From: Candidatus Electrothrix sp. GW3-4
Lineage (GTDB): Bacteria > Desulfobacterota > Desulfobulbia > Desulfobulbales > Desulfobulbaceae
Assembly: GCF_037902255.1 (NCBI RefSeq)
Contig: NZ_CP147990.1
Location: 1,830,001 to 1,862,000 of the forward strand
Length of the DNA stretch: 32,000 nucleotides
Direction of reading: 5' to 3'
The notes under the pieces are model-generated. The model ran no database searches, was not told the origin of the DNA, and saw only the letters and a program-made list of their open reading frames with translations. A program made the translations under genes and the position numbers. This document shows positions 1,671-16,259 of this stretch, piece by piece. How positions within the stretch are numbered: position 1 is the first letter of the stretch; each line of letters begins with the position of its first letter.

Positions 1671-1720
1671 GACAAACCAAGAGCAGTTCTCTGTCCCTCC
1701 CTTGGTTTGTCTTCTTTTTC
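1671..1720 (+). terminator. Rho-independent terminator of the 1090-1650 gene
   Basis: An 11-bp perfect stem GACAAACCAAG (1671-1681) / CTTGGTTTGTC (1701-1711) is followed by TTCTTTTTC. Confidence 0.7.
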
Positions 1721-4700
1721 TATAATTTCATTGACTAACCCTCCACCCCCCACCTACCGGCTGGCCCAGGTCACTGACCCGGAAGGCCATGCGGTCAGCT
1801 ATGCTTATGATGCTGACGGCAACCGCATCAGCAGAACCTCGGCCCTTGGGATCAGCACCCGTTTTGCCTACGATGCCCTGGATCGCCGCATTGCCGTGAT
1901 CCGTAATGCAGACTCGGGCCTGTCCGCAGATCATCAGACCAATGTCCGCACCGAGTACGGCTATGATCTGGCAGGCAACCTGATCCGCCTGACCAATCCC
2001 CTGGGCTATCAGGCCGAGTTCAGCTATGATGCAGCCCATCGTCGGACAGAGGCGGTTGATTTTGAAGGCGGCAGCACCCTGTACAGCTACGATAAGGTGG
2101 ACAACCTCCTCAGTATCACGGACGCTGAGGGCAATCCCACCCTGTACCAGTACGACGACCTGAACCGACGCATCAGCAGCACCAATGCCGAGGACGAGAC
2201 CACCGGCTTTGTCTACGATTTGATGGGCAACCGGATTACCCTGATTGAAGCGGATGAAACCCTGACCCGGTACGAACACGACGGGGTCTATCGCCTGCAC
2301 CGGGTCACGGAGAACTACCGACCGGACGAGGCTCCTGGCAATGATGTCAACAAGCTCACCCGATACAGCTACGATGCCCGTGGTCTGCTCACTGAGATCA
2401 TCAATGCCAACGAGGCAGCCACCGCCTTTGCTTACAACGGGGTGGGCAATCTGATTGAAGAGATCAACCCGTTGGGCAGGACCTGGACCTACAGCTATGA
2501 TGGCATGGGCAACCGGATCAGTCGCAGGGACGGCAAGGGTGCGCTGACTGCGTACAGCTTTTATCCCGATGACCTGCTGCAAAGCATCGCCTACAGCGAC
2601 GGCACCGCAGTCAGCTATGCCTATGATGCGGACAACCGCCGCATCCAGATGCAGGATTGGTTGGGACAGACCAGCTGGGACTACGATCCCTTGGCACGGG
2701 TCACCGGAACTGTTGACCCGCTGGGTTCTGTACTGGCGGCCAGCTATGATGCGGCAGGCAATCGTACCTCCCTGACCTACCCGGACAGCAGCGTGGCCGA
2801 GTATGCCTACAGCCCTAATAACTGGATGCAGCAGATCATTGCAGGGGATACAGGGACACGGCATGCCGTATCCCAACAAACCCAATACAGCCGCAACCGG
2901 GTTGGACGGGTGACCGGGATCATCAATTCCAATGCAACCCGGACCGATATTGCATACGACCGGGTCTATCGCACCCTGCGGCGGGAGACCGTGAATCGCA
3001 AGGAAACAATTGCCGCCTTTGAATACGCCTACAATCCGGTGGGCCATGTCACCGAGGCCGTGAAGGAGTACGGCTGGCGCAATCCCACCCAACAACGGGA
3101 GAGCTACTCCTACGACGGCCTGCACCGACTGGCCGGGGTGGTGATCAACCCGCTGAAGAACAACGGCGATCCTGTGCAGATGGGCTATGCCTATGATCCG
3201 GTGGGCAACCGGCTCTCCTGGTCAAGCGAGGACGACCTGGCTACCAACCAGCCCTGGGACGGTTTCACCATCACCTCCGCCTATAACGCGGCCAACCAGC
3301 TGCTCCGGGCCGAGACCGACTCCCTGACCCCGAACCCCAACCGCAGTCCAGTGCAGGAGTTCCGCTATGACGGCAACGGCAACCGTATCCGTGTGCAGGC
3401 CGACGACGGCCACGGCCCGGTCATCGGCACCGACTACAGCTATGACCCGGAGAACCGGCTGATCCAGGCCCTGGATTACCAACTCACCGGCTCTGATGCC
3501 GGGAACCGTATCGACCGGGCAGTCACGGCCCTGGAATACGACGGCGGCGGGCGCAGGTTGGTCAAGCATTACGATCCCAAGGCCAATCAGAGCCTCGGCA
3601 GCACAACAGGCGGGAAAAAGGGCGGCAAGAAGAACAGTACAGGCGCGGGCACCCAGGGCGTGGACAAGCGCACCGAGTACGTGTTCGACGGCCTGGACCC
3701 GGTGGCTGAGTACGACACCCTGAACGGCCAATACGAGAATTACTACCGGGGCACGGATCGGCAGATCAGCATGGCCCAGCACTTCAACTCCGGCGCAACC
3801 GGTCAGCTCCGCTGGTACCACTACAACCATAAGGGCGACGTGGCCGGACTGACCAAGCAGAACGGCAATGCCGTGCATACCTACCGCTATGATCCCTACG
3901 GCGGGGTGATCCCGGCCAACGGCAACTTCACGGACCCGCATAACCACTACACCCTGACCGGCAAGGAGTTTGATGAACACACCGGACTGGTCTGGTTCGG
4001 GGCGCGGCATTATGATCCCGAGACCGGGGTGTGGATGGGGCAGGATACGTATCGGGGGCGGTTAAACGATCCGGCGAGTCTGCATCGGTTTATGTATGTT
4101 GATGATAATCCGGTTACGTTTTGGGATTGGTATGGGTACGCAACAAAGGGGGAAATTGAAAGAGTCAAATCAGTTATAGATGATGCTGCGAAAACATACG
4201 GTGTTCCTGTTGAGGCTATTGCAATTTTGCTTGATGTTGAGAATCCATCTGATAATAATTTTAATCGTCAAGTAAAACAACTAGGTGCTTTTGCTCTAAA
4301 TCCTCTGGGGCTCGGAAAAGTAGCAAATCGTGTAGGAAACTCTTTCGGAATGAATTTGATGAAAGATCATTGTAGATACGGATGCCCTCAAGGAGTAGGA
4401 AATATCTCCCCAGACGTTGCACAAGAAATTAGTGATTATTTTGACAAAAACTATCCAAGCACAAAAATGTCTTGTATGGCCCATGTTAATTCTTTCACAA
4501 GAAATATAAAGCTAACAAATGATTATTATAATGTTTATATTGTTGCAGCAAGTATTAGGCGTGGCATGGAAGAATTAAAGAGGCTAGGAGTGGTCAATAA
4601 TGTTGATAATGAAGAATTAACAAAGAAAGAGTTATCATTAATTATTCAATATCATAATTATCCAGCATCAAGTGTATCTGGAATCTGTAGCACGGTGTAC

Positions 4701-4772
4701 TGCAATAGGATTGTTGAGTTATTAAATAAATACAATAAAGGAGAAACTGGTCTCCAGTTTATAGATAATTAA
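1707..4772 (+). CDS. RHS/YD-repeat protein with C-terminal polymorphic toxin domain; apparently 5'-truncated (orphan fragment)
   Basis: There are dozens of YD repeats (YAYDADGNRI, FAYDALDRRI, YGYDLAGNLI and others). The core ends with GARHYDPETGVWMGQD...SLHRFMYVDDNPVTFWDWYG, the RHS core-end motif (DPxGL variant). GC content then drops sharply at ~4100-4140, followed by ~210 aa of unrelated AT-rich sequence. The only available start is a TTG lying inside the upstream gene's terminator; there is no ATG for the first ~170 codons and no SD. Confidence 0.85.
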   Translation: MSSFSIISLTNPPPPTYRLAQVTDPEGHAVSYAYDADGNRISRTSALGISTRFAYDALDRRIAVIRNADSGLSADHQTNVRTEYGYDLAGNLIRLTNPLGYQAEFSYDAAHRRTEAVDFEGGSTLYSYDKVDNLLSITDAEGNPTLYQYDDLNRRISSTNAEDETTGFVYDLMGNRITLIEADETLTRYEHDGVYRLHRVTENYRPDEAPGNDVNKLTRYSYDARGLLTEIINANEAATAFAYNGVGNLIEEINPLGRTWTYSYDGMGNRISRRDGKGALTAYSFYPDDLLQSIAYSDGTAVSYAYDADNRRIQMQDWLGQTSWDYDPLARVTGTVDPLGSVLAASYDAAGNRTSLTYPDSSVAEYAYSPNNWMQQIIAGDTGTRHAVSQQTQYSRNRVGRVTGIINSNATRTDIAYDRVYRTLRRETVNRKETIAAFEYAYNPVGHVTEAVKEYGWRNPTQQRESYSYDGLHRLAGVVINPLKNNGDPVQMGYAYDPVGNRLSWSSEDDLATNQPWDGFTITSAYNAANQLLRAETDSLTPNPNRSPVQEFRYDGNGNRIRVQADDGHGPVIGTDYSYDPENRLIQALDYQLTGSDAGNRIDRAVTALEYDGGGRRLVKHYDPKANQSLGSTTGGKKGGKKNSTGAGTQGVDKRTEYVFDGLDPVAEYDTLNGQYENYYRGTDRQISMAQHFNSGATGQLRWYHYNHKGDVAGLTKQNGNAVHTYRYDPYGGVIPANGNFTDPHNHYTLTGKEFDEHTGLVWFGARHYDPETGVWMGQDTYRGRLNDPASLHRFMYVDDNPVTFWDWYGYATKGEIERVKSVIDDAAKTYGVPVEAIAILLDVENPSDNNFNRQVKQLGAFALNPLGLGKVANRVGNSFGMNLMKDHCRYGCPQGVGNISPDVAQEISDYFDKNYPSTKMSCMAHVNSFTRNIKLTNDYYNVYIVAASIRRGMEELKRLGVVNNVDNEELTKKELSLIIQYHNYPASSVSGICSTVYCNRIVELLNKYNKGETGLQFIDN

Positions 4773-4778
4773 GTGCAA

Positions 4779-4798
4779 GGGCACGGCCCGCCGTGCCC
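4779..4798. repeat. GC palindrome GGGCACGGCcCGCCGTGCCC (leader hairpin, copy A)
   Basis: One mismatch from the perfect 20-nt palindrome seen at 8166-8185. Confidence 0.8.
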
Positions 4799-4897
4799 CA
4801 ACGGGACCACCCACCACCCGTTCCATCCCCCTGCGCCATGACGATTATGCCCGGCCCGCACCCCGCCCCGATAATCAATCAGGGCAGGGCCGATCCC

Positions 4898-4999
4898 GTA
4901 GGGGCGGACCCCTGTGTCCGCCCTGATCGTCCTGTGTCCACCTGTTTGTCCACCATCCCGGCAGATCAACCAAGGGCAGGCACGGGGGCCTGCCCCTAC
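4898..4999. repeat. REPIN-like inverted REP doublet (leader A)
   Basis: GTAGGGGCGGACCCCTGTGTCCGCCC (4898-4923) pairs with GGGCAGGCACGGGGGCCTGCCCCTAC (4974-4999). The reverse complement of the second, GTAGGGGCAGGCCCCCGTGCCTGCCC, is a variant of the first with stem-compensating changes. Confidence 0.8.
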
Positions 5000-5159
5000 A
5001 ATTCGTGGTGAATAACGAATCATGAATGAACCTGACATCCATCATCGCCGGTCCATCCGCCTGCGCAATTATGATTACACACAGGCCGGGGCCTATTTCG
5101 TGACGATATGCGTGCAACACCGGGAATGCCTGTTGGGCCATATTTCCGTTCCCGCCACC

Positions 5160-5185
5160 GTAGGGGCAGACCCCTGTGTCTGCCC
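5160..5185 (+). repeat. Single REP unit GTAGGGGCAGACCCCTGTGTCTGCCC inside the RAYT gene
   Basis: It has the same 26-nt architecture as the units at 4898, 5339 and 8284. Its length is 3n+2 and it lies exactly where the reading frame changes. Confidence 0.8.
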
Positions 5186-5338
5186 TGGTATTTCCCTGAA
5201 ATCCGTCTGACCGACGCAGGCCGCATGGTTCAGACAATATGGGATGAAATCCCGGATCATTATCCTGGTGTCGATATTGATGCCTTTGTGGCCATGCCGA
5301 ATCATATCCACGGGATTGTGGTATTGACCAATCCTGTC

Positions 5339-5439
5339 GTAGGGGCGGACCCCTGTGTCCGCCCGGATCCCTGTGTTCGACCGTATATTCCGCCATCGCG
5401 GCAGAACCACCAAGGGCAGGCACGGGGGCCTGCCCCTAC
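5339..5439. repeat. REPIN-like inverted REP doublet translated in frame inside RAYT
   Basis: GTAGGGGCGGACCCCTGTGTCCGCCC (5339-5364) and GGGCAGGCACGGGGGCCTGCCCCTAC (5414-5439) encode VGADPCVRP...GQARGPAPT, between the HUH and Tyr motifs. Confidence 0.8.
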
Positions 5440-5740
5440 GGAACCGTTATCATTACCGGATGTGGTCCAACGATATAAATCCCTGACCACCAACCGGTAT
5501 ATTGACGGGGTGAAACAACACGGTTGGCCGCCGTTTCCCGGCAAATTATGGCAACCCAATTATTGGGAACACATCATCCGTAACGAAAACGAATTGCACC
5601 GCATCCGCGAATACATCCGCACCAACCCGGCCCGTTGGCAGGAGGACGCATTGCATCCCGATCAGCCCCCATTCCCCGGTGAAACCCGTGAATCATCACC
5701 GCCTTATGATTCTTATGGTCATGAGGTATGGATGGTGTGA

Positions 5741-5780
5741 CCTGCCGCCACCATTCCATCCGCCTGCGCAATTATGATTA
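5741..5780 (+). other. Short RAYT 5' remnant directly after the RAYT stop codon
   Basis: cctgccgccaccattccatccgcctgcgcaattatgatta resembles RAYT nt ~5036-5079 (HHRRSIRLRNYDY region) and the fragment at 9141-9176. Confidence 0.6.
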
Positions 5781-5855
5781 AGGATCAATGGGGTCAGAGT
5801 CGATTGATTTTATCAAGAAAGGATAACCGGGGCGGCCTGATGTCTGAAATTTCGA

Positions 5856-5885
5856 TTGCCGAAACAACCTTTTTTCAGATATAAA
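5856..5885 (+). promoter_or_regulatory. Candidate sigma70 promoter of TA pair 1 (TTGCCG-N18-TATAAA)
   Basis: Both hexamers and the spacing are conserved at 9229-9258 upstream of TA pair 2. The site overlaps an inverted repeat, TCTGAAA (5843-5849) / TTTCAGA (5873-5879). Confidence 0.4.
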
Positions 5886-5933
5886 GAAGGAATGGGCAAT
5901 CCGAATAACCCAACAGATGGAATGAGACGCATT

Positions 5934-6134
5934 ATGACGACATTAACAGAGATAGAAAGAGCTGTGACCAATTTATCCCGGAAGGATTTCAATAAATTCC
6001 GGGACTGGTTTTCCGCCCTGGAGCAGAGAAAGTGGGACAGGGAATTCGAGGAAGATGCACAAAACGGACTGCTGGATGATCTGGCGAACGAGGCATTAGC
6101 CGATTTCCAATCCGGCAGATGCAGGGAGCTGTGA
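5934..6134 (+). CDS. Putative antitoxin of ParE/RelE-like TA pair, copy 1 (66 aa)
   Basis: MTTLTEIERAVTNLSRKDFNKFRDWFSALEQRKWDREFEEDAQNGLLDDLANEALADFQSGRCREL is a small acidic protein. Its stop overlaps the toxin's GTG start (GTGA). It is ~90% identical to 9306-9506. Confidence 0.7.
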   Translation: MTTLTEIERAVTNLSRKDFNKFRDWFSALEQRKWDREFEEDAQNGLLDDLANEALADFQSGRCREL

Positions 6135-6487
6135 AGCATTACACTTCACCGAAGTATTGGCAGGCATATAACCGGCTGTCCGCCAAGGTTCGAACCATTG
6201 CGGACAAGAACTTCGATCTTCTCAAAAAAGATCCTCGCCATCCCTCGTTGCATCTGAAAAAGGCAGGTCGTTTTTGGTCAGTACGGGCCGGAATCAAGCA
6301 TAGAGCCTTGGGTGTTGATTCCCCCGGCCAGGACGGTATCGTCTGGTTCTGGATAGGTGCGCATGCTCAATATGACAAATTATTGGGCAAAAAACAGGTT
6401 ACATCCCACATTCAGCATACCCTCTATCCATTTCCAGAATATAATTTTTCATATCTCCCACCCAACAGCTTCAGCAGACGCAAATGA
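6119..6487 (+). CDS. ParE/RelE-superfamily toxin (ParE-like), copy 1; 3' end runs into IS1634
   Basis: The body reads KHYTSPKYWQAYNRLSAKVRTIADKNFDLLKKDPRHPSLHLKKAGRFWSVRAGIKHRALGVDSPGQDGIVWFWIGAHAQYDKLLGKK. The pattern NP/DPxHPSLxxKK...WSVRxxxxxRALG...WFWIGxHxxYD is what I associate with ParE-like toxins. The conserved start is probably the GTG at 6131. The last ~28 codons are read from IS sequence. Confidence 0.7.
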   Translation: MQGAVKHYTSPKYWQAYNRLSAKVRTIADKNFDLLKKDPRHPSLHLKKAGRFWSVRAGIKHRALGVDSPGQDGIVWFWIGAHAQYDKLLGKKQVTSHIQHTLYPFPEYNFSYLPPNSFSRRK

Positions 6488-8154
6488 TGTTCATTTAAAT
6501 TCAGGACCAGCTGTTGCATTCCGCCGACAAGCAGCAGGTGAATTCCTGAAAAAAACTGAAATACCCAACGAGCAGTAGGGTTAGGGGCAGGTTTTCCTTT
6601 CTGGTTGGGAAATGTTTCATTATTTATTTCGAGCGCTTGTCTGATGCGATATTCCAACGCGGCGTACACCAGGAGGCAAAGCGTCATAACCATCATCAGG
6701 GCCATGATACGTTTTCGGGATTTTAAAAAAAGCGTTGAAGCCATAAACATAGGATCTTTGAGGAAACGAAAACCCCGTTCAACCTTTTGCTGATCTTTGT
6801 ACACTTTCAAGAGTTCCTCGTCGGACAATTCTTCGCAGTCCAACTGATTCGTTGCAAGAATAAAACAGCTTTTTCGTTCCAACAATCGGGTTCTCTCCTG
6901 AAGCAGGGAGGCTGGGTTGCCTTCAATGCGGTAAACATAAAAGTCCGGTTTCTTGCCCTTGGCTGGCCGTCCTTTGCCCTTATGGCGAGGTAAAGCAACA
7001 ACACGAGCGTCATGAATTGAGAGTATTTTCAGCTTTTTTTCAAAACGGGACAGTGCTTTCAATGCATCGGCCTCGCAGGCAAAATCCTGTTTGCACAATT
7101 TATCGAATTGCTTGGATTCATTTGTGCTCAGCTTGAGGCATTTTTTGTTTACGGTCTTGCGTCCCCGTTGATATGCTTCAGGCGAATAGACAACCAACCA
7201 GCGCTGCCTGACATCGCCATAAACTACCCCGAGACTGCGAGATGCTGCTTTTTCAGGATCCTGCATCAGATTTGAAGCTACTTCATGGATGATCTCCTGG
7301 GACAGATTCAATGTCTCCGGTACACGGGAAATCCACAATATCATGCTCAGTTCTTTTAATGTTTGCGCTGTATAGAGCGCACTATCCGCAACCAGATATT
7401 CCAGGCTGAAATCGTTTTTCATCTGATCAATATGCGCTTGCACTGTTTCCCGAAAATCTGTTTTATCGCTACTGTTACCACTTAACGGCTTCATCAGAAG
7501 CGGGATGCCAGCCTGTCGTTCGCAAATGAGCTGCAACACGATCTGGTTCAGATCCGGACGATGATCACGGCTGTAGCCTTTTGTGATCCGAATAACACCT
7601 TCTTCCTCTTCTGATCCGTTGGCTGGATAGCGACCGTCGGTATGAAAACTCGTTGAATCCAAGTGACCAAAACGTGCCAGCAGCCCTAGACGACCAATTG
7701 CCCTAGCTGCAAGCTGCGAATATAACTCTTCGGGATTATGCTCGTAAATCACTTCTAAGGCCCGGCCCAAAACAGTATCGTTCAGGTGCTGGGCCTCAAT
7801 GCCTTCTCCGATGAGTCGATCTACCGGTTTATCCTGGAAAAAATGCGGGGTCAGATACAATGCCCGATTCGCAAAGCCCAACCCGTTAAGAACCATTGCC
7901 TTAACTGCCTGACCAACTGAGACAACTCGCTTTTCTTTATCCTGATGAATCAGACTGTCAATCAGCTCCCCAAGTCCGAGTTCGTCATACATACCCGCGA
8001 CTAGGCCCAAGTGATTGAGGAGTTTACTTGAGCATTCCTGTGGTAAAATCGTTGTGTTGTTTTCCATACCTGCTGCCTGGTTGATTTATTAAATGTCTTT
8101 TTGAGGCAGCAGGTTATAAAATATTTTTTTATGTGTCAACGTGCGGAATGTGGG
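6405..8154 (-). mobile_element. IS1634-family (IS4 superfamily) insertion sequence, complete, 1,750 bp
   Basis: The terminal IRs are CCCACATTCAGCA (6405-6417) and the reverse complement of 8142-8154, CCCACATTCCGCA (12/13 match). It is flanked by the direct repeat TTACAT (6399-6404 and 8155-8160; up to 8 bp, GGTTACAT, if the IR is drawn shorter). An uninterrupted paralogous site, ggttgcattgtaag, is present at 9778-9791. Confidence 0.85.
6424..8067 (-). CDS. IS1634-family DDE transposase (547 aa)
   Basis: The sequence HLGLVAGMYDELGLGELID...GQAVKAMVLNGLGFANRALYLTPHFF...HLDSTSFH...GYSRDHRPDLNQ...LVADSALYT...KDQQKVERGFRFLK is the typical IS1634/IS4-type layout. Confidence 0.85.
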   Translation of the reverse strand: MENNTTILPQECSSKLLNHLGLVAGMYDELGLGELIDSLIHQDKEKRVVSVGQAVKAMVLNGLGFANRALYLTPHFFQDKPVDRLIGEGIEAQHLNDTVLGRALEVIYEHNPEELYSQLAARAIGRLGLLARFGHLDSTSFHTDGRYPANGSEEEEGVIRITKGYSRDHRPDLNQIVLQLICERQAGIPLLMKPLSGNSSDKTDFRETVQAHIDQMKNDFSLEYLVADSALYTAQTLKELSMILWISRVPETLNLSQEIIHEVASNLMQDPEKAASRSLGVVYGDVRQRWLVVYSPEAYQRGRKTVNKKCLKLSTNESKQFDKLCKQDFACEADALKALSRFEKKLKILSIHDARVVALPRHKGKGRPAKGKKPDFYVYRIEGNPASLLQERTRLLERKSCFILATNQLDCEELSDEELLKVYKDQQKVERGFRFLKDPMFMASTLFLKSRKRIMALMMVMTLCLLVYAALEYRIRQALEINNETFPNQKGKPAPNPTARWVFQFFSGIHLLLVGGMQQLVLNLNEHHLRLLKLLGGRYEKLYSGNG

Positions 8155-8165
8155 TTACATTGTAA

Positions 8166-8185
8166 GGGCACGGCGCGCCGTGCCC
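8166..8185. repeat. Perfect 20-nt palindrome GGGCACGGCGCGCCGTGCCC (leader hairpin, copy B)
   Basis: Read directly; it is its own reverse complement. Confidence 0.85.
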
Positions 8186-8283
8186 CAACGGGATTACCAC
8201 CACCCATTCCATCCCCCTGCGCCATAACGATTACCCCCGGCCCGCACCCCGCCCGGATAATCAATCAGGGCAGGGCCGATCCT

Positions 8284-8366
8284 GTAGGGGCGGACCTATG
8301 TGTCCGCCCGGTTTGTCCACCATCCCGGTACCTTCCAACCGGGCAGGCACGGGGGCCTGCCCCTAC
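8284..8366. repeat. REPIN-like inverted REP doublet (leader B)
   Basis: GTAGGGGCGGACCTATGTGTCCGCCC (8284-8309) and GGGCAGGCACGGGGGCCTGCCCCTAC (8341-8366). Confidence 0.8.
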
Positions 8367-8396
8367 AATCCGTGGTGAATAACGAATCATGAAATA

Positions 8397-8675
8397 TCAT
8401 TCCGATATCCGGGGATCTGCCTCTACGGATGTCTCCGACATAATCTCATCTCCCGGCAAGGGTGTCCGATCAGGCACCTTATCCAATATACCCCTGAAGG
8501 CCGCCCGATCCGCCTTTTTCGCCCGTTGCTCCAGATAATTTTCTGTTGTAAGGGCGGAAATCTTTTCAGACACAGCCGTCGAAATAAACTGATTGATCGA
8601 TACACCTTCTTGCGTTGCTATTTGCTTAATATGACGATGAATAGAATTTGGTAACCGTAAACTAAGTGTACTCAT
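8397..8675 (-). CDS. Ribbon-helix-helix antitoxin (HicB/Arc-like RHH family), 92 aa
   Basis: MSTLSLRLPNSIHRHIKQIATQEGVSINQFISTAVSEKISAL...AFRGILDKVPDRTPLPGDEI matches the RHH antitoxin pattern LRLPxSxHxxxxxxAxxEGVSxNQ. It overlaps the upstream PIN gene by 4 nt (ATGA). Confidence 0.75.
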   Translation of the reverse strand: MSTLSLRLPNSIHRHIKQIATQEGVSINQFISTAVSEKISALTTENYLEQRAKKADRAAFRGILDKVPDRTPLPGDEIMSETSVEADPRISE

Positions 8676-9085
8676 TGTATTGCCTCCAATAATTTTCCGG
8701 GGCGGAGCGCAGTTACCCCGAATTTATCAACCCCTTTAAAATCTTTCATATTATGGGTGACGATTATTCTTGTTTTTGATGCCACAGCCACCTCAAGGAC
8801 ATGATCATCTTTCGGGTCTTTCAGGTACGGTCGCCACAAAAAATATATTTTTTGAAATTTGCTGAGGGCGCAGATATTGTCAAGAACTACCTCAATCTCG
8901 TTGTCAGATAACCCTAATTCCTTTTGTTTCCGTTTTAGAACATCTTCGTATTCAAAAAGGAGCGTAGTTGATATAACAGGTATTATTCTGCCGGTATCAA
9001 TGCGTCTTAATATTTGATACGATGCCCCTGATGAGGAATACAGCCCTGAAAAAAGTATATTGGTGTCCATAATGATTGTATCCAT
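8672..9085 (-). CDS. PIN-domain toxin (137 aa), encoded upstream of its antitoxin
   Basis: The sequence MDTIIMDTNILFSG...LLFEYEDVL...DPKDDHVLEVAVASKTRIIVTHNMKDF carries acidic PIN residues (DTN, E, D, N/D) in the usual order. It is translationally coupled to the 8397-8675 gene. Confidence 0.75.
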   Translation of the reverse strand: MDTIIMDTNILFSGLYSSSGASYQILRRIDTGRIIPVISTTLLFEYEDVLKRKQKELGLSDNEIEVVLDNICALSKFQKIYFLWRPYLKDPKDDHVLEVAVASKTRIIVTHNMKDFKGVDKFGVTALRPGKLLEAIQ

Positions 9086-9140
9086 GTTTAAACAATACCG
9101 AATATGGTATCGTTATGTCAAGCGGGAATATAACGAGCAG

Positions 9141-9210
9141 CATCACTGCCGCCCCAGCCAGCTGCGCAATTAGATTACACACGGGCCGGGGCCTGTTTCG
9201 TCACGATATG
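9141..9210 (+). pseudogene. RAYT 5' remnant (codons ~6-29 only)
   Basis: catcactgccgccccagccagctgcgcaattagattacacacgggccggggcctgtttcgtcacgatatg aligns with RAYT 5036-5109 (HHRRSIRLRNYDYTQAGAYFVTIC) and carries an indel. Homology stops where the TA cassette begins. Confidence 0.65.
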
Positions 9211-9228
9211 TATATCCTGAAATTCCGA

Positions 9229-9258
9229 TTGCCGAAAAGACCTTTCTTCAGGTATAAA
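9229..9258 (+). promoter_or_regulatory. Candidate sigma70 promoter of TA pair 2 (TTGCCG-N18-TATAAA)
   Basis: It is the conserved counterpart of 5856-5885 and overlaps the inverted repeat CCTGAA (9216-9221) / TTCAGG (9247-9252). Confidence 0.4.
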
Positions 9259-9305
9259 GAAAGAATGGGCAATCCGAATAACCCGGCAGACCGGAAGAGA
9301 GTATT

Positions 9306-9506
9306 ATGACGACATTAACAGAGATAGAAAGGGCCGTGACCAATTTATCCCGACAGGATTTCAATAAATTCCGGGACTGGTTTTCCGCCTTGGATCAGCG
9401 GAAGTGGGACAGGGAATTCGAGGAAGATGCGCAAAATGGCCTGCTGGATGATCTGGCGAACGAGGCATTAGCTGATTTCCAATCCGGCAGATACAGGGAG
9501 CTGTGA
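9306..9506 (+). CDS. Putative antitoxin of ParE/RelE-like TA pair, copy 2 (66 aa)
   Basis: A paralogue of 5934-6134 with only a few substitutions. Its stop overlaps the toxin's GTG start. Confidence 0.7.
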   Translation: MTTLTEIERAVTNLSRQDFNKFRDWFSALDQRKWDREFEEDAQNGLLDDLANEALADFQSGRYREL

Positions 9507-9778
9507 AACATTACACTTCGCCGAAGTTCGCCGAAGTATTGGGAGCGTATAACCGGTTGTCCGCTAAGGTCCGAACCGTTGCGGACAAAAATTTCGATCT
9601 TCTCAAAAAAGACCCTCGTCATCCATCGCTGCATCTAAAAAAGGCAGGTCGATTCTGGTCGGTACGGGCCGGAATCAACCATAGAGCCCTGGGTGTTGAT
9701 TCCCCCGACCAGGACGGTATTGTCTGGTTCTGGATAGGTACGCATGCTCAGTATGATAAACTGCTGGGCAAAAAATAG
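9503..9778 (+). CDS. ParE/RelE-superfamily toxin (ParE-like), copy 2, intact (91 aa)
   Basis: A paralogue of 6131-6404. It has a 9-nt internal duplication (ccgaagttcg ccgaagtatt) near the 5' end and ends ...YDKLLGKK-TAG. Confidence 0.75.
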   Translation: MKHYTSPKFAEVLGAYNRLSAKVRTVADKNFDLLKKDPRHPSLHLKKAGRFWSVRAGINHRALGVDSPDQDGIVWFWIGTHAQYDKLLGKK

Positions 9779-9854
9779 GTTGCATTGTAAGCTCGTAAGG
9801 GCACGATGCGCCATGTCCCAACGGGATTACCCACCACCCGTTCCATCCCCCTGC
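9779..9854 (+). repeat. REP-rich leader, copy C (5' ~75 nt only, degenerate)
   Basis: attgtaag..gggcacgatgcgccatgtcccaacgggattacccaccacccgttccatccccctgc matches the first part of leaders A and B. The palindrome (9799-9818) carries several transitions. Homology ends at ~9854. Confidence 0.7.
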
Positions 9855-9971
9855 AACAGAACGGTTCGGCAAACCGGTGTCCGGTTCCTTTCCCACCGTT
9901 ATCCGATCATTCAAATTCGTTGTCACCAAACACATCAACATCTTGCGCAATATATCCGGCAACAGAGCAGC

Positions 9972-11078
9972 CTACCCCAACACCTCATCAAACGGCAGCA
10001 CTAACTGCTTCAACACAGGTTTGTTGCGCTCCTGCTCAAGTTCCGTCTTGGAACAGAGGTTGGAGACGGTCAGGCCCAAAAGGCGGACCATCTTTTGCCC
10101 TGCATCAGTGGCCGCAAGCAGGGCAGGCACCTCTTGCATGATATCTTCGGCATCGCCAAAGCCAGTGGCACGAGTAACCGAGCGGGTGATCGTACGAAAA
10201 TCCTGATAGCGAATTTTCAGGGTCAAGGTGCGGCCAGCTTTTTCTTTGTCTGTAAGGGATCTGCCCACCTGCTGGGCCTGCTGAGCAAGGATGGTCAGCA
10301 TGGTTTGTTGATCCCGGATGTCCTTTTCCAGGGTGGTCTCCGTGCCCATGGATTTTCGCCCCTGTCTGGGCTGAACCGGGCGGTTATCAATGCCCCGCAC
10401 AATGTCATAGAAAAAATTACCAGGCTTGCCAAAAAGCCTAACCAGTTTTTCCCGGCTGTAGCCTTGCAGGTCAGCCCCGGTTTTGATCCCCAGCTCAAGC
10501 ATCCGCTGCTCCGTGACCCGACCCACCCCGAAAAATTTGCGTACCGGCAGGGTGCGGATAAAGGGCAGGGCCTGCTCCGGGGTGATCACTGTTAGTCCGT
10601 TGGGTTTATTGATATCCGAGGCCACCTTGGCGAGAAATTTATTGCAGGATACCCCGGCGGAGGCGGTCAGGCCAGTGGCCTGAAAGATTTCCTTACGAAT
10701 GGTTTCTGCAGTCCAGGTGGCTGATGGAATGGCCTTGGTGTTTTGGGTGATGTCGAGAAAGGCCTCATCCAGGGACAGGGGCTCTACCAAGGGCGTATAG
10801 TCTCGGAAAATAGCCATGATCTGTTGGGACACCTCACGGTAGCGCTCTTTGCGGGGCCGGACAAACAGGGCCTGAGGGCAAAGGGCGTAGGCTCGGGCAC
10901 AGGACATGGCCGAGTGGATGCCGAATTTTCTCGCCTGATAGGAACAGGCCGCCACTACGCCCCGGCCCTGAGGATCACCACCAACAATCAGGGGCCGGTT
11001 GCGGAGTTCTGGGTTGTCCATCTGCTCCACAGAGGCGAAAAAGGCGTCCATGTCTATGTGGATTATTTTTCGGAGCAA
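9972..11078 (-). CDS. dinB: DNA polymerase IV (Y-family)
   Basis: The sequence RKIIHIDMDAFFASVEQMDNPELRNRPLIVGG...SLDEAFLDIT...NKFLAKVASDINKPNG...VRKFFGVG matches canonical DinB motifs. The start is a TTG. Confidence 0.93.
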   Translation of the reverse strand: MLRKIIHIDMDAFFASVEQMDNPELRNRPLIVGGDPQGRGVVAACSYQARKFGIHSAMSCARAYALCPQALFVRPRKERYREVSQQIMAIFRDYTPLVEPLSLDEAFLDITQNTKAIPSATWTAETIRKEIFQATGLTASAGVSCNKFLAKVASDINKPNGLTVITPEQALPFIRTLPVRKFFGVGRVTEQRMLELGIKTGADLQGYSREKLVRLFGKPGNFFYDIVRGIDNRPVQPRQGRKSMGTETTLEKDIRDQQTMLTILAQQAQQVGRSLTDKEKAGRTLTLKIRYQDFRTITRSVTRATGFGDAEDIMQEVPALLAATDAGQKMVRLLGLTVSNLCSKTELEQERNKPVLKQLVLPFDEVLG

Positions 11079-12417: not shown

Positions 12418-12720
12418 GATATGTTCTCGGTAATAAAATCAATACGATGGATATTTGACCCTCTGTTAACTCCAGGGAGCTCATAAATATATATTTTTTT
12501 GCTCGCCACAAGCATGAGGGAGAGATTGCTAATGTCCAGTAGTTTCTGGAGACAAACCTATTTTATTAGCATGACCAGAAACATTCAGCAATGGTTATTC
12601 AAGCATTATAAGGAGCTGGTGAATACCACTGATATGCTCGATAATCCCGAACGAAATCTAAGAAGTCATTGTACCAACTCATTGATTAAATTTAAAGTTG
12701 TTTTTCTTAAACTGAAATCT

Positions 12721-14894: not shown

Positions 14895-16259
14895 ATGAGT
14901 GCAACACTGAATAACCTGATCGTTTTGTTGTGTAAGGGGATCGGGCAGCGAAAAATCTACTTCACACGTCATCCTATACTTACAAAGACCTGCCAACATT
15001 TTGTCGATAATCTGAATATTTTTTTTTCAGAAAGAGAAACAGAGGAGCTGTTTATCGGTATTGTTGAAAACAAACTTGTGCATGACGGACAGTACCTTAT
15101 CGGGCCGAGTATTATGGGCCTGCAGCTCGTAACCTTTGCGCAACAGATTCATTGCGGTGGCTTTGTTTTTCGTGCAAGAACAGCAGTCAAAGACTTACAG
15201 GAGCTCCTTGAGCTGAGTGACCATATCACGCATTCTGTGGGCAGCCTGCAGGAGGCCCGAGATTTCTTAGCTGCGCATAATGTTACCAATATAAAACTGG
15301 CCAGGCATTATACAGCCCCCTCCACCTTAATCCCGCTGGAAGATCAAGTTGTCTGGCAAGGAGAGGATTCGAGCGGCAATCTCTACACTCCTCTTCTTAT
15401 CTATCAGGCCCTTTTTGATGTCGTTGCCAAGGCATACGGTAATGTGAGCCTCAATCGTACTCTTGACATCGACGGAGCCCAAACGGTGAGCGAACATCTA
15501 CTCAGCTACACCCGTCTCAGTTTTAGCGACATCCTCCAATTTGTCCATTATCCTGACCACGACAGTTATACGGTGGGACATTCGGTCAGGGTCGCGACCT
15601 TAGCGGTTTTTTTTGGCAACGCCTTAGGGTTTGATGACGAAAAACTGGTTGAGTTAGGTGCCGCAGCCCTGCTTCATGATATCGGCAAGGGAAAGATCCC
15701 TTCAGAAATTCTCCATAAACAGGGTAAGCTCAATCATGATGAATTCGCCCTTATCCAATCGCACCCCAAGTTTGGAGCGGAAATCCTGCTCGAACATAAG
15801 GATGTTACCCCCATGCAGCTTGCCTCTGCATGGGGGCATCATATCCGTTACGACGGCGGGGGATATCCCAAACCTCCTCCCTGGGCGGTTTATAGTCATG
15901 TCACCGCGCTTCTCCATATTTGTGATGTCTTTGAGGCCTTGACAGCTGTCCGGCCGTATAAACCGTCAATCAGCCCGTTATCGGCATTCGGGATCATGGC
16001 TCAAGACAAAGGGGACTTTGACCCTGCTCTGTTCTTTGCCTTTGTCTCGGCCCTGGGCATCTACCCCCCAGGCAATCAAGTCCGACTGAGTAACGGCTGG
16101 CAGGGGATGGTCATTGCTTCCAGTGCGGCCATTGATAAACCTGTTGTGCGCATCAATCGTGATAATACAGGCAAGGCGTTAGAGATGTGCGATCAGCATC
16201 TCATCGATCTCTCAAAGGATCCAAAAGGAGAATTAACGGTTGTTGAACTGTTAACCTGA
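14895..16259 (+). CDS. HD-GYP domain phosphodiesterase (probable c-di-GMP hydrolase)
   Basis: SD AGGGAGG precedes the start. The motifs are HSVRVA...LLHDIGKGKIP (HD), HHIRYDGGGYP (GYP) and DVFEALTAVRPYK. Confidence 0.85.
   Translation: MSATLNNLIVLLCKGIGQRKIYFTRHPILTKTCQHFVDNLNIFFSERETEELFIGIVENKLVHDGQYLIGPSIMGLQLVTFAQQIHCGGFVFRARTAVKDLQELLELSDHITHSVGSLQEARDFLAAHNVTNIKLARHYTAPSTLIPLEDQVVWQGEDSSGNLYTPLLIYQALFDVVAKAYGNVSLNRTLDIDGAQTVSEHLLSYTRLSFSDILQFVHYPDHDSYTVGHSVRVATLAVFFGNALGFDDEKLVELGAAALLHDIGKGKIPSEILHKQGKLNHDEFALIQSHPKFGAEILLEHKDVTPMQLASAWGHHIRYDGGGYPKPPPWAVYSHVTALLHICDVFEALTAVRPYKPSISPLSAFGIMAQDKGDFDPALFFAFVSALGIYPPGNQVRLSNGWQGMVIASSAAIDKPVVRINRDNTGKALEMCDQHLIDLSKDPKGELTVVELLT

Follow-up and report, generated by a model that had tools for sequence, protein, structure and literature searches.

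How a single chromosomal locus came to hold the same leader three times, the 5' end of one transposase gene again and again, and toxin-antitoxin (TA) operons where the body of that gene should follow, is the question raised by positions 4,773 to 9,854 of a 32,000-nt stretch of Candidatus Electrothrix sp. GW3-4 (contig NZ_CP147990.1, positions 1,830,001 to 1,862,000, forward strand; hereafter the window). The transposase is a RAYT (REP-associated tyrosine transposase) and the leader is rich in REPs (repetitive extragenic palindromes); a RAYT gene flanked by its own REPs constitutes a REPtron, and REPINs (REP doublets forming hairpins) are the proposed mobile unit of such systems. RAYTs are regarded as domesticated, single-copy genes that act only on REPs of 20-40 nt. 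A preliminary description, made from the sequence alone, reported three leaders, two RAYT 5' stumps and two ParE-like TA pairs arranged as a tandem series of modules. The interval 4775-9966 is here considered to be, probably, one instance of a type of TA cassette array, derived from a REPtron, that has been kept throughout the cable-bacteria lineage and is shuffled by recombination at its REP and stump repeats.

The repeats are real: in a BLASTN comparison of positions 4700-9900 with the whole window, the three leaders, both stumps and both TA pairs align where they had been placed, with E values from 1e-14 to 0. Leader 1 (4774-5026) is 84% identical to 8161-8393 over 255 nt (E 2e-76) and 86-88% identical to 9795-9866 (E 1e-14 to 3e-17); the TA regions 5844-6404 and 9217-9785 are 88% identical over 571 nt (E 0); the RAYT 5' segment 5040-5110 is 85% identical to 9141-9210 (E 4e-15), and 5052-5077 is 100% identical to 5755-5780. 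No further copy of leader, stump or TA pair lies outside 4774-9866 in the window. A pattern scan of the window with the REP consensus GTAGGGGCRGACCCCTGTGTCYGCCC finds seven copies, all within 4898-8366, with none expected from shuffled sequence. RAYT homology ends and the second TA cassette begins at 9210|9211 (...gtcacgatatg|tatatcctgaaatt), the junction originally proposed; where the RAYT body would follow a RAYT 5' segment, a TA operon stands instead, which is indeed not a standard RAYT arrangement. The similarity of the two TA pairs also stands, at a measured 88-89% in place of the ~90% first given.

Other parts of that description required revision. Three modules proved to be an undercount, as the locus comprises five units, an insertion sequence (IS) element and a third TA pair. 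Read directly along the sequence, the units are P1-Q-RAYT; S-V-TA1; P2-Q-S(1-22)-REP remnant with an inverted PIN/RHH cassette; S-TA2; and P3 with a RAYT remnant at dinB, where P and Q are REP types, S is a RAYT 5' segment and V is a second type of junction repeat. The statement that a leader directly follows each TA pair holds except at TA1, from which leader 2 is separated by an IS1634-family element (6405-8154), and leader 3, taken for a copy truncated at 9854, runs on into a mid-RAYT fragment (9849-9966); RAYT remnants are thus present at both ends of the array. The array looks old and partly decayed, given 11-16% divergence among its copies, a frameshift in its RAYT, an IS insertion and a degenerate P3.

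GW3-4 is not alone in this layout, which is observed in at least eight Electrothrix/Desulfobulbaceae assemblies and in five metagenome contigs, usually downstream of an RHS gene, which also flanks the arrays of loci L001, L002, L003, L005, L017 and L032. The syntenic locus of E. scaldis (L001), reached through the closest toxin homologue, consists of RHS, a leader, an intact RAYT and then five TA cassettes in the order HigBA-Phd, RelE/ParD (inverted), 66/92-aa pair, RelB3/ParE and Phd/PIN; a leader/RAYT 5' stump piece stands at every cassette boundary, the last stump preceding the flanking peptidase gene. Five cassettes are found in the array of E. aestuarii (L003), nine in E. laxa (L002, L008) and at least ten in Electrothrix sp. 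Rat3 (L032), and the same array grammar is seen in an E. marina metagenome-assembled genome, S24.Bin023, an uncultured Electrothrix and metagenome contigs. Among 185,579 species genomes (a collection that lacks GW3-4, E. scaldis and E. aestuarii), a degenerate 26-nt pattern for the stump has matches in only 13 stretches, all from Electrothrix or Desulfobulbaceae; in the JGI metagenomes it matches seven contigs, similar to these lineages and with the same grammar. All seven matches in the closed 4.08-Mb E. laxa chromosome fall within one 16-kb locus, and the single match in the closed YB6 genome lies inside a TA array. Confined in this way to a few loci, the stump is not a generic dispersed repeat, and its association with leaders and TA genes is not a by-product of one.

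Mapping of repeats and open reading frames (ORFs) in 21 loci yields a common joint: P, a 28-nt GTAG-tagged palindrome (GTAGGGGCACGGCGCGCCGTGCCCCTAC and variants) that folds as single-stranded DNA at -10 to -14 kcal/mol; a spacer of ~31 nt, or the short linker CAACGGGATTAC; and S, the first 20-120 nt of the RAYT gene, which leads into the remainder of RAYT, into a further REP or into a type II TA operon. Of ~104 S elements, classified by BLAST thresholds and by hand, ~13 run into a RAYT body, ~45 meet a REP at one of two sharp positions (S nt 30 or nt 70), ~37 precede a TA operon and ~9 are at a border or have unknown cargo; an ordinary gene follows S inside an array in none of the ~104. The cargo is almost wholly type II TA, of at least 14 families (Pfam on 58 ORFs of the new loci, plus precomputed annotations): RelB/YafQ, Phd/YoeB, MazF, Gp49/HTH, HigBA, several ParE types, RelB3/ParE, RelE/ParD, five PIN types, FitA, MazE, HEPN/MNT and the ParE_like pair. 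Throughout each locus S lies on one strand, about one cassette in five is inverted, and RAYT 5' fragments greatly exceed 3' fragments (~90 S remnants and a handful of body remnants). Units without cargo, [S(1-70)-P-spacer], also occur in tandem with a period of 125-126 nt and 3.5 to 6.3 copies.

The position at which S ends is specific to the cassette family and is kept across assemblies while the neighbouring cassettes differ. It is nt 79 for RelB3/ParE (L001, L003, L007, L010, L032), nt 54 for Phd/YoeB (L010, L032), nt 43-46 for HigB-like/HTH (L002, L011, L016, L024), nt 73 for Gp49/HTH (L002, L016), nt 107-115 for RHH/ParE (L006, L011, L023, L032) and nt ~95-103 for the 66/88-aa pair (TA66/88; L011, L016 and TA2 of the window); the last pair has a second junction type, S(..59)+V, in GW3-4 TA1, in a contig of the related strain LOE2 and in metagenome contig L021. 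One [S-RHH/ParE] unit with its stump is present in the YB6 array, which is otherwise punctuated by V. Conserved junctions beside differing neighbours indicate that each fusion arose once or a few times and that the [S+TA] unit subsequently changed neighbourhood.

The breakpoints between species point to the same repeats. Between GW3-4 and E. scaldis, homology is interrupted by the variable RHS C-terminus, restarts precisely with REP P1 and ends at the RAYT stop/REP edge; between L016 and L010, homology around a shared cassette stops at or just past P; and outside the genus, Desulfococcus multivorans has tandem RAYT fragments, each bounded by REPs. Synteny that breaks at REP edges marks REPs as recombination joints, and both P and Q form stable DNA hairpins. 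We infer that the units moved by recombination at REP and S: the [S+TA] units would be REP-bounded modules that are duplicated, lost, inverted and exchanged through the REP and S repeats, probably for the most part by RecA-dependent recombination between repeats of 30-250 bp, whether as unequal crossing-over or as Campbell-type excision and integration. Nicking of REP hairpins by RAYT may stimulate this process, and the addictive TA genes would favor retention of whatever lands in the array; such addiction is proposed as the reason why only TA cargo persists. Recombination between S/leader repeats would account for the uniform orientation of S, for the direct repeats of S(41-73) found on both sides of cassettes in L010 and L016, and for the shuffled cassette order, while deletion of cargo between flanking S repeats would leave the empty 125-126-nt units.

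Several points weigh against this favored account. No circular junctions were found, no genome was seen to have identical copies of a unit at two unlinked sites, and among very close strains the IS element gave the sole presence/absence polymorphism seen, with none for a TA unit. The divergence of the module copies in GW3-4 implies no recent recombination or homogenization there, and at 28 bp the REPs offer RecA only a short substrate. Depending on the cassette family, S has its right end anywhere from nt 22 to nt 124, which excludes one site-specific crossover point, and the account does not explain how at least 10 TA operons became fused to RAYT 5' ends at differing positions. The genome-wide density of P and Q REPs is an estimate from the flanks of the loci only, and arrays from different species, being partly orthologous, do not count as independent samples.

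An alternative in which the transposase itself does the work is considered rather unlikely. An intact RAYT would cleave and rejoin single-stranded REP hairpins, by a 'peel and paste' process like that of IS200/IS605, and so move REP-bounded segments; the [P-spacer-S-TA-P] units would then be non-autonomous REPtron derivatives with TA cargo, mobilized in trans, in an HUH-based analogue of the integron. The TnpA-REP of Escherichia coli reportedly cleaves and rejoins REP single strands, HUH and Tyr motifs are kept in many of the RAYT copies, and the units are REP-bounded, with the stop codons of RAYT and of TA toxins lying inside a REP (GTAG/GTAA); yet to our knowledge no RAYT has been shown to move protein-coding cargo, that of GW3-4 is frameshifted, and the copies within arrays are diverged rather than recent. 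Solitary P-RAYT-P elements in differing genomic contexts (L015, L019, L022), the duplicated REP-bounded RAYT fragments of Desulfococcus, the abutment of REP and S at two sharp positions and the REP variants that differ at one conserved site in the leader and within RAYT alleles all suit such an enzyme; P is nonetheless missing at several joints, for example at window 5740/5743, the YB6 [S-RHH/ParE] unit has no REP P nearby, and the ends of S are variable. The stronger form of the idea, that cable bacteria possess a gene-cassette platform run by this HUH (Y1) RAYT, in which REP hairpins play about the role of attC, the RAYT 5' region that of a landing pad, and TA units move as single strands, is unlikely. 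Two narrower mechanisms were set aside: a single site-specific crossover inside the stump is ruled out by the spread of S ends given above, and nested self-insertion of RAYT elements, suggested by the tandem stumps of E. laxa, predicts nested 3' remainders that are absent.

At the other extreme, the locus would be a dispensable island behind the RHS gene in which TA operons, decayed RAYT duplicates and REPs accumulate without mechanistic link. This reading is thought improbable: passive decay is at odds with the heavy excess of 5' over 3' RAYT fragments, the uniform orientation of S at each locus, the absence of non-TA cargo, and the cassette-specific S-cargo junctions that travel into new neighborhoods, including YB6 with its one S. 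It draws on the preference of REPs for gene 3' ends and intergenic space (PMC3733652), on the YB6 array being punctuated mostly by V rather than S, and on RAYT 5' stumps being common as short ORFs in many phyla, the three contexts sampled outside Electrothrix being unrelated to TA genes. Far less credible is the view that one [leader-stump-TA] module was recently duplicated in tandem, in place, in GW3-4, or that the repeats were misassembled. What speaks for it is that two TA pairs and three leaders point the same way within 5 kb; it is already contradicted, as the copies are just 84-89% identical, Tandem Repeats Finder detects no tandem repeat in the window locus, and the independently assembled LOE2 contig of 2.9 kb is 96% identical with the same order of leader-RAYT-stump-V-TA1-P2. 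TA1 is 93-96% identical to the E. scaldis and E. aestuarii copies and is their orthologue, while TA2 is an older paralogue, 89% identical to TA1, that branches outside the group of TA1 and its orthologues; the two pairs are therefore not a recent tandem duplication, and other species have the same stump+TA units beside different neighbors.

Among the closest known systems is the REPtron, with which the array shares a Y1 transposase bearing HUH and Tyr motifs, GTAG palindromic REPs upstream of the gene and over its stop codon, and REP doublets. It differs in that REPs and RAYT fragments are concentrated in one locus rather than dispersed, the RAYT 5' end recurs tens of times, TA operons take the place of the RAYT body, a locus may hold more than one RAYT copy or allele, and REPs occur in frame within the RAYT ORF. 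IS200/IS605 elements and PATEs (palindrome-associated transposable elements) are likewise hairpin-bounded elements with a Y1 transposase, whose derivatives keep the ends and lose the transposase; we know of no TA cargo or head-to-tail arrays among them. No left-end or right-end cleavage motif and no target site was identified for the REP/RAYT units, and TA-bearing units were seen only at different positions within arrays and as the one unit in YB6.

Superintegrons are also linear series of short, mostly co-oriented cassettes, many of them TA, with imperfect palindromes that fold as single strands and an adjoining recombinase gene; here there is no IntI, attI or attC, the recombinase gene itself contributes to the joint, inverted cassettes make up ~20%, and cassettes have their own promoters. 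An integron is ruled out, as no tyrosine recombinase is present among the window ORFs scanned, there is no attC and the joints are REP/RAYT sequence. The pdif modules of Acinetobacter plasmids, bounded by XerC/D sites, are small, often carry TA genes, vary in order and are bracketed by short repeats resembling recombination sites; they differ from these chromosomal arrays, in which REP hairpins and RAYT stumps take the place of 11-6-11 Xer sites. In layout the array thus resembles both integron arrays and pdif modules, yet it belongs to neither. Capture by ISCR (insertion sequence common region)/IS91 elements, as in complex class 1 integrons with partial duplications of the 3' conserved segment (3'-CS), shares an HUH enzyme and partial duplications with one constant and one variable end, whereas RAYT belongs to the Y1 enzymes of IS200 type, neither ori nor ter ends were identified, and there is no evidence of rolling-circle copies. 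Orphan toxin/immunity modules of rhs loci lie, like the array, directly downstream of an RHS gene with a strain-variable C-terminus, in a modular, recombination-prone island; the cargo here is classical type II TA rather than rhs-CT/immunity, and the joints are REP/RAYT sequence rather than rhs core repeats. The parts (REPtrons, GTAG REPs, type II TA, IS1634 and rhs islands) are known; their combination, with RAYT 5' ends and REPs as the joints of a genus-wide TA-only array, appears new, in that a literature search of incomplete coverage could find no description of RAYT/REP-jointed TA cassettes.

The role of RAYTs and the spread of REPs are open questions, and here REP/RAYT 5' joints carry, across a genus, addiction modules only. 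If the joints are mechanistically involved, the arrays would be a natural system in which products of REP and RAYT can be read as stump lengths, REP positions and empty units, and would help to explain how chromosomal TA islands outside integrons are assembled and reshuffled; if the RAYT-driven alternative were true, this would be the first RAYT/REP system moving protein-coding cargo and an integron analogue of independent origin. Even on the conservative reading, homologous recombination, it is a documented case of portable repeats serving as 'homology handles' for cassette exchange. TA cassettes of superintegrons are thought to stabilize the array, and by analogy it is plausible that the TA pairs stabilize the REP/RAYT locus. 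Cable bacteria are uncultured, filamentous and multicellular, and dense TA arrays beside RHS toxins may bear on kin discrimination or defense.

Table 1. Features of the GW3-4 array and its borders (window positions).
Feature	Position	Strand	Description
RHS-repeat gene fragment	1707..4772	+	Pfam RHS_repeat E 3.5e-66; left border of the array
REP P1	4775..4802	+	GCAAGGGCACGGCCCGCCGTGCCCCAAC; variant of the 28-nt GTAG-tagged palindrome; hairpin -10.1 kcal/mol, z -3.1
Pseudo-stump in leader 1	4801..4862	+	~RAYT nt 14-75, diverged; 77-85% identical to RAYT 5' end
REP Q doublet	4898-4923, 4974-4999	+, -	REPIN-like; pattern matches, inverted repeats; folds at -24.5 kcal/mol, z -2.75
RAYT, frameshifted	5022..5740	+	Y1 HUH transposase; Pfam Y1_Tnp 23.6 bits; NCBIfam REP_Tyr_transpos E 2e-13
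REP Q copies inside RAYT ORF	5160-5185, 5339-5364, 5414-5439		three copies
RAYT 5' stump 1	5743..5780	+	~nt 27-59; directly 3' of RAYT stop codon; 5755-5780 equals 5052-5077
V element	5781..5820	+	ATCAATGGGGTCAGAGTCGATTGATTTTATCAAG; second repeat type at cassette junctions
TA cassette 1	5844..6404	+	5' region 5844-5933; 66-aa antitoxin 5934-6134; ParE-like toxin from 6131
IS1634-family element	6405..8154	-	transposase 6424-8067, NF033559 342 bits
Leader 2	8162..8410	+	REP P2 8162-8189; pseudo-stump 8188-8248; REP Q 8284-8309; REP Q' 8341-8366 (-); spacer; RAYT nt 1 to ~22 8389-8410
Inverted TA cassette	8397..9128	-	RHH/HicB-like antitoxin 8397-8675; PIN_3 toxin 8672-9085; promoter-like site 9121-9092
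RAYT 5' stump 2	9141..9210	+	nt ~22-93; 85-88% identical to RAYT 5' end; precedes TA2
TA cassette 2	9217..9778	+	5' region; 66-aa antitoxin 9306-9506; 91-aa ParE-like toxin 9503-9778
Terminal unit	9795..9966	+	degenerate REP P3 9795-9822; pseudo-stump 9821-9854; mid-RAYT fragment 9849-9966
dinB (DNA polymerase IV)	9972..11078	-	NF002677 464 bits; right border in GW3-4

The leader itself holds a diverged RAYT 5' segment just after its first hairpin (Table 1), and it is not a known RNA family, as no Rfam family matches 4000-10500 at E<=0.1. Scans for promoters and terminators return counts no higher than those of shuffled sequence; the PIN/RHH promoter alone looks good. The stump 1 junction is also present in LOE2 and in metagenome contig L021. 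At the right end, REP P3 no longer forms a hairpin, and the mid-RAYT fragment corresponds to ~RAYT nt 351-468 of an E. laxa-type allele and ends 5 nt before the dinB stop codon; the ORF from 9877 encodes 'GSFPTVIRSFKFVVTKHINILRN', in agreement with the RAYT alignment. The right border is a peptidase M48 gene in E. scaldis and E. aestuarii.

At the left border the stop codon of the RHS fragment directly abuts REP P1, and 1749-4135 is 90% identical to the RHS gene of E. scaldis, which encodes 2016 aa. The GW3-4 ORF is without ~960 N-terminal residues of that homologue. Similarity to the E. scaldis gene is lost over the final ~640 nt of the ORF (4136-4772), the pattern that exchange of a C-terminal toxin domain would produce, and the fragment is not followed by an immunity-like gene, P1 being next after the stop codon. 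Two ORFs upstream of it (128-775 and 1090-1650) are without Pfam match. In Ca. E. aarhusensis (L005), two P-type palindromes are located inside the RHS gene, upstream of RAYT (6129-6156 and 6259-6286).

The RAYT frameshift lies at a run of C residues (5194-5196), CCC in GW3-4 and CCCC in E. scaldis and LOE2, where the intact orthologues have 239 aa; it could be a real pseudogenizing mutation or a homopolymer error of the assembly. Across 10 Electrothrix RAYTs, the orthologues of the window gene among them, the HUH and Tyr motifs (MPNH(I/V/F)HGI and REYIxxNP) are invariant. The Pfam match (PF01797) stands just above its cut-off of 23 bits, and NF047646 is matched at E 2e-13 to 3e-17 with 50-63 bits, and by the orthologues at E 1e-15 to 1e-17, in each case below the cut-off of 80, because REP-encoded insertions split the domain; no relative in the PDB was found by sequence. 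A cognate GTAG-tagged REP P is placed ~60 nt upstream of RAYT, and another overlaps its stop codon, in L015, L019, L022, L007 and L011; the window RAYT has a Q doublet upstream. Nor is the gene always single-copy, as E. laxa has two copies and ~20 stumps in one locus. In the plasmid collection there is no DNA match to leader and stump, and RAYT homologues are distant only (<36% identity).

REP hairpins lie in frame within the RAYT coding sequence of E. laxa L002 as well (9287-9314 and 12621-12648). One REP in the RAYT ORF encodes a 15-aa insertion, VPATVGADPCVCPGI, and the loop just past the HUH motif is encoded by a REP or a REP doublet. The type differs by allele (Q in GW3-4, E. scaldis and LOE2; P in E. 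laxa; a GCGGTTCGCGAACCGC variant in L024) and tends to match that of the flanking REPs; the internal region of the E. laxa RAYT also contains 25-27-nt half-REP tandem repeats. Short ORFs with the RAYT N-terminus alone (HHRRSIRLRNYDYSQAGAYFVT) are found in many phyla, including Nitrospirota, Planctomycetota, cyanobacteria, Bacteroidota and Marinimicrobia. A protein search with the stump peptide gave 215 matches, of 39-79 aa in all 120 matches listed, a set probably biased by the candidate collection, from which no ratio of stumps to full genes can be read. The three stump contexts sampled outside Electrothrix are an IS66-split RAYT, a lone stump and REP-bounded tandem RAYT fragments (L027, L029, L030), none with TA genes.

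TA1 and TA2 are each composed of co-directional genes of 66 aa and 91-92 aa joined by a GTGA stop/start overlap; the two antitoxins and two toxins were assigned by exact-sequence look-up to locus tags WGN25_08260 to 08290. The label 'ParE-like' given to the toxins at the outset is reasonable, not proven: of the more than 850 homologues of the 91-aa toxin, 30 were sampled and 27 of these match PF24732 (Pfam ParE_like; best E 5e-10), while the window toxin alone scores 16.5 bits, below the cut-off of 24.4. Its AlphaFold2 model (predicted local distance difference test score 74.5) has the predicted topology alpha-alpha-beta4-alpha, the order of the RelE/ParE fold. The toxin profile has no PDB relative by sequence; the top six Foldseek matches of the model in the PDB are RelE, HigB, YoeB and a Helicobacter pylori RelE-type protein (2otr), and the top 30 are mostly RelE, HigB, YoeB, ParE, GraT or related proteins, the rest being frataxin and Txp40, all of them weak (E 0.09-0.6, template modeling score 0.4-0.5). 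At its N-terminus (9503-9560) toxin 2 reads KFAEVLGAY in place of the family K(Y/F)WxAY, with a 9-nt insertion; the Trp that is lost is at least 90% conserved in 30 homologues, and the TA2 toxin may be attenuated. In the third pair, the toxin matches PIN_3 at E 2e-22 and the antitoxin has HicB/RHH matches (Pfam); this cassette is 88% identical over 710 nt to one of E. laxa, including its junction with a short RAYT stump and REP.

The element at 6405-8154 belongs to the IS1634 family, as observed from its transposase, inverted repeats (CCCACATTC.../...GAATGTGGG), target-site duplication (TTACAT at 6399-6404 and 8155-8160) and the empty site in relatives (LOE2 and E. scaldis); it is 1750 bp long. 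Its insertion displaced the last two codons and the stop of toxin 1, which is consequently annotated as extended to 118 aa; the original TAA is at 8163-8165, inside REP P2, and removal of the IS restores the toxin 1 stop inside the next REP, as in E. scaldis and LOE2.

The V element recurs in L002, L006 (four copies, at cassette borders), L007, L013, L021 and L032, with positions of 1219, 2384, 3314 and 4089 in L006, 11408 in L002, 1837 in L007, 654 in L013 and 7068 in L032; in the YB6 TA array it stands at every boundary and RAYT stumps are nearly absent. V folds weakly (z -1.3), and a Xer/pdif site was set aside for it, as its 7-nt arms are 13 nt apart rather than in the 11-6-11 arrangement. 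In some species a Q-type REP doublet and an 80-nt GTAG...CTAC long hairpin are also part of the joint. This hairpin, which is REPIN-like (-22.5 kcal/mol, z -6.6), is found on the 3' side of many cassettes in other Electrothrix and is absent from the GW3-4 window; its sites include 852-908 and 1712-1768 in L016, 2840-2896, 4530-4586 and 6293 in L010, 7842-7898 and further copies in L032, and 15570-15626 and 17357-17413 in L002. The leader of E. laxa has a conserved frame (RAYT nt 1 to ~27 ... GGGACAACCACGG) that encloses a REP whose stem-loop varies from copy to copy (GCGGTTCGCGAACCGC, GCGTTTCGCGAAACGC or GCAATTCATGAATTGC), as at 8547-8600, 10566-10632 and 11596-11680 in L002 and at 6817-6884 and 7735-7800 in L008; it looks as if REPs are exchanged there at a fixed site.

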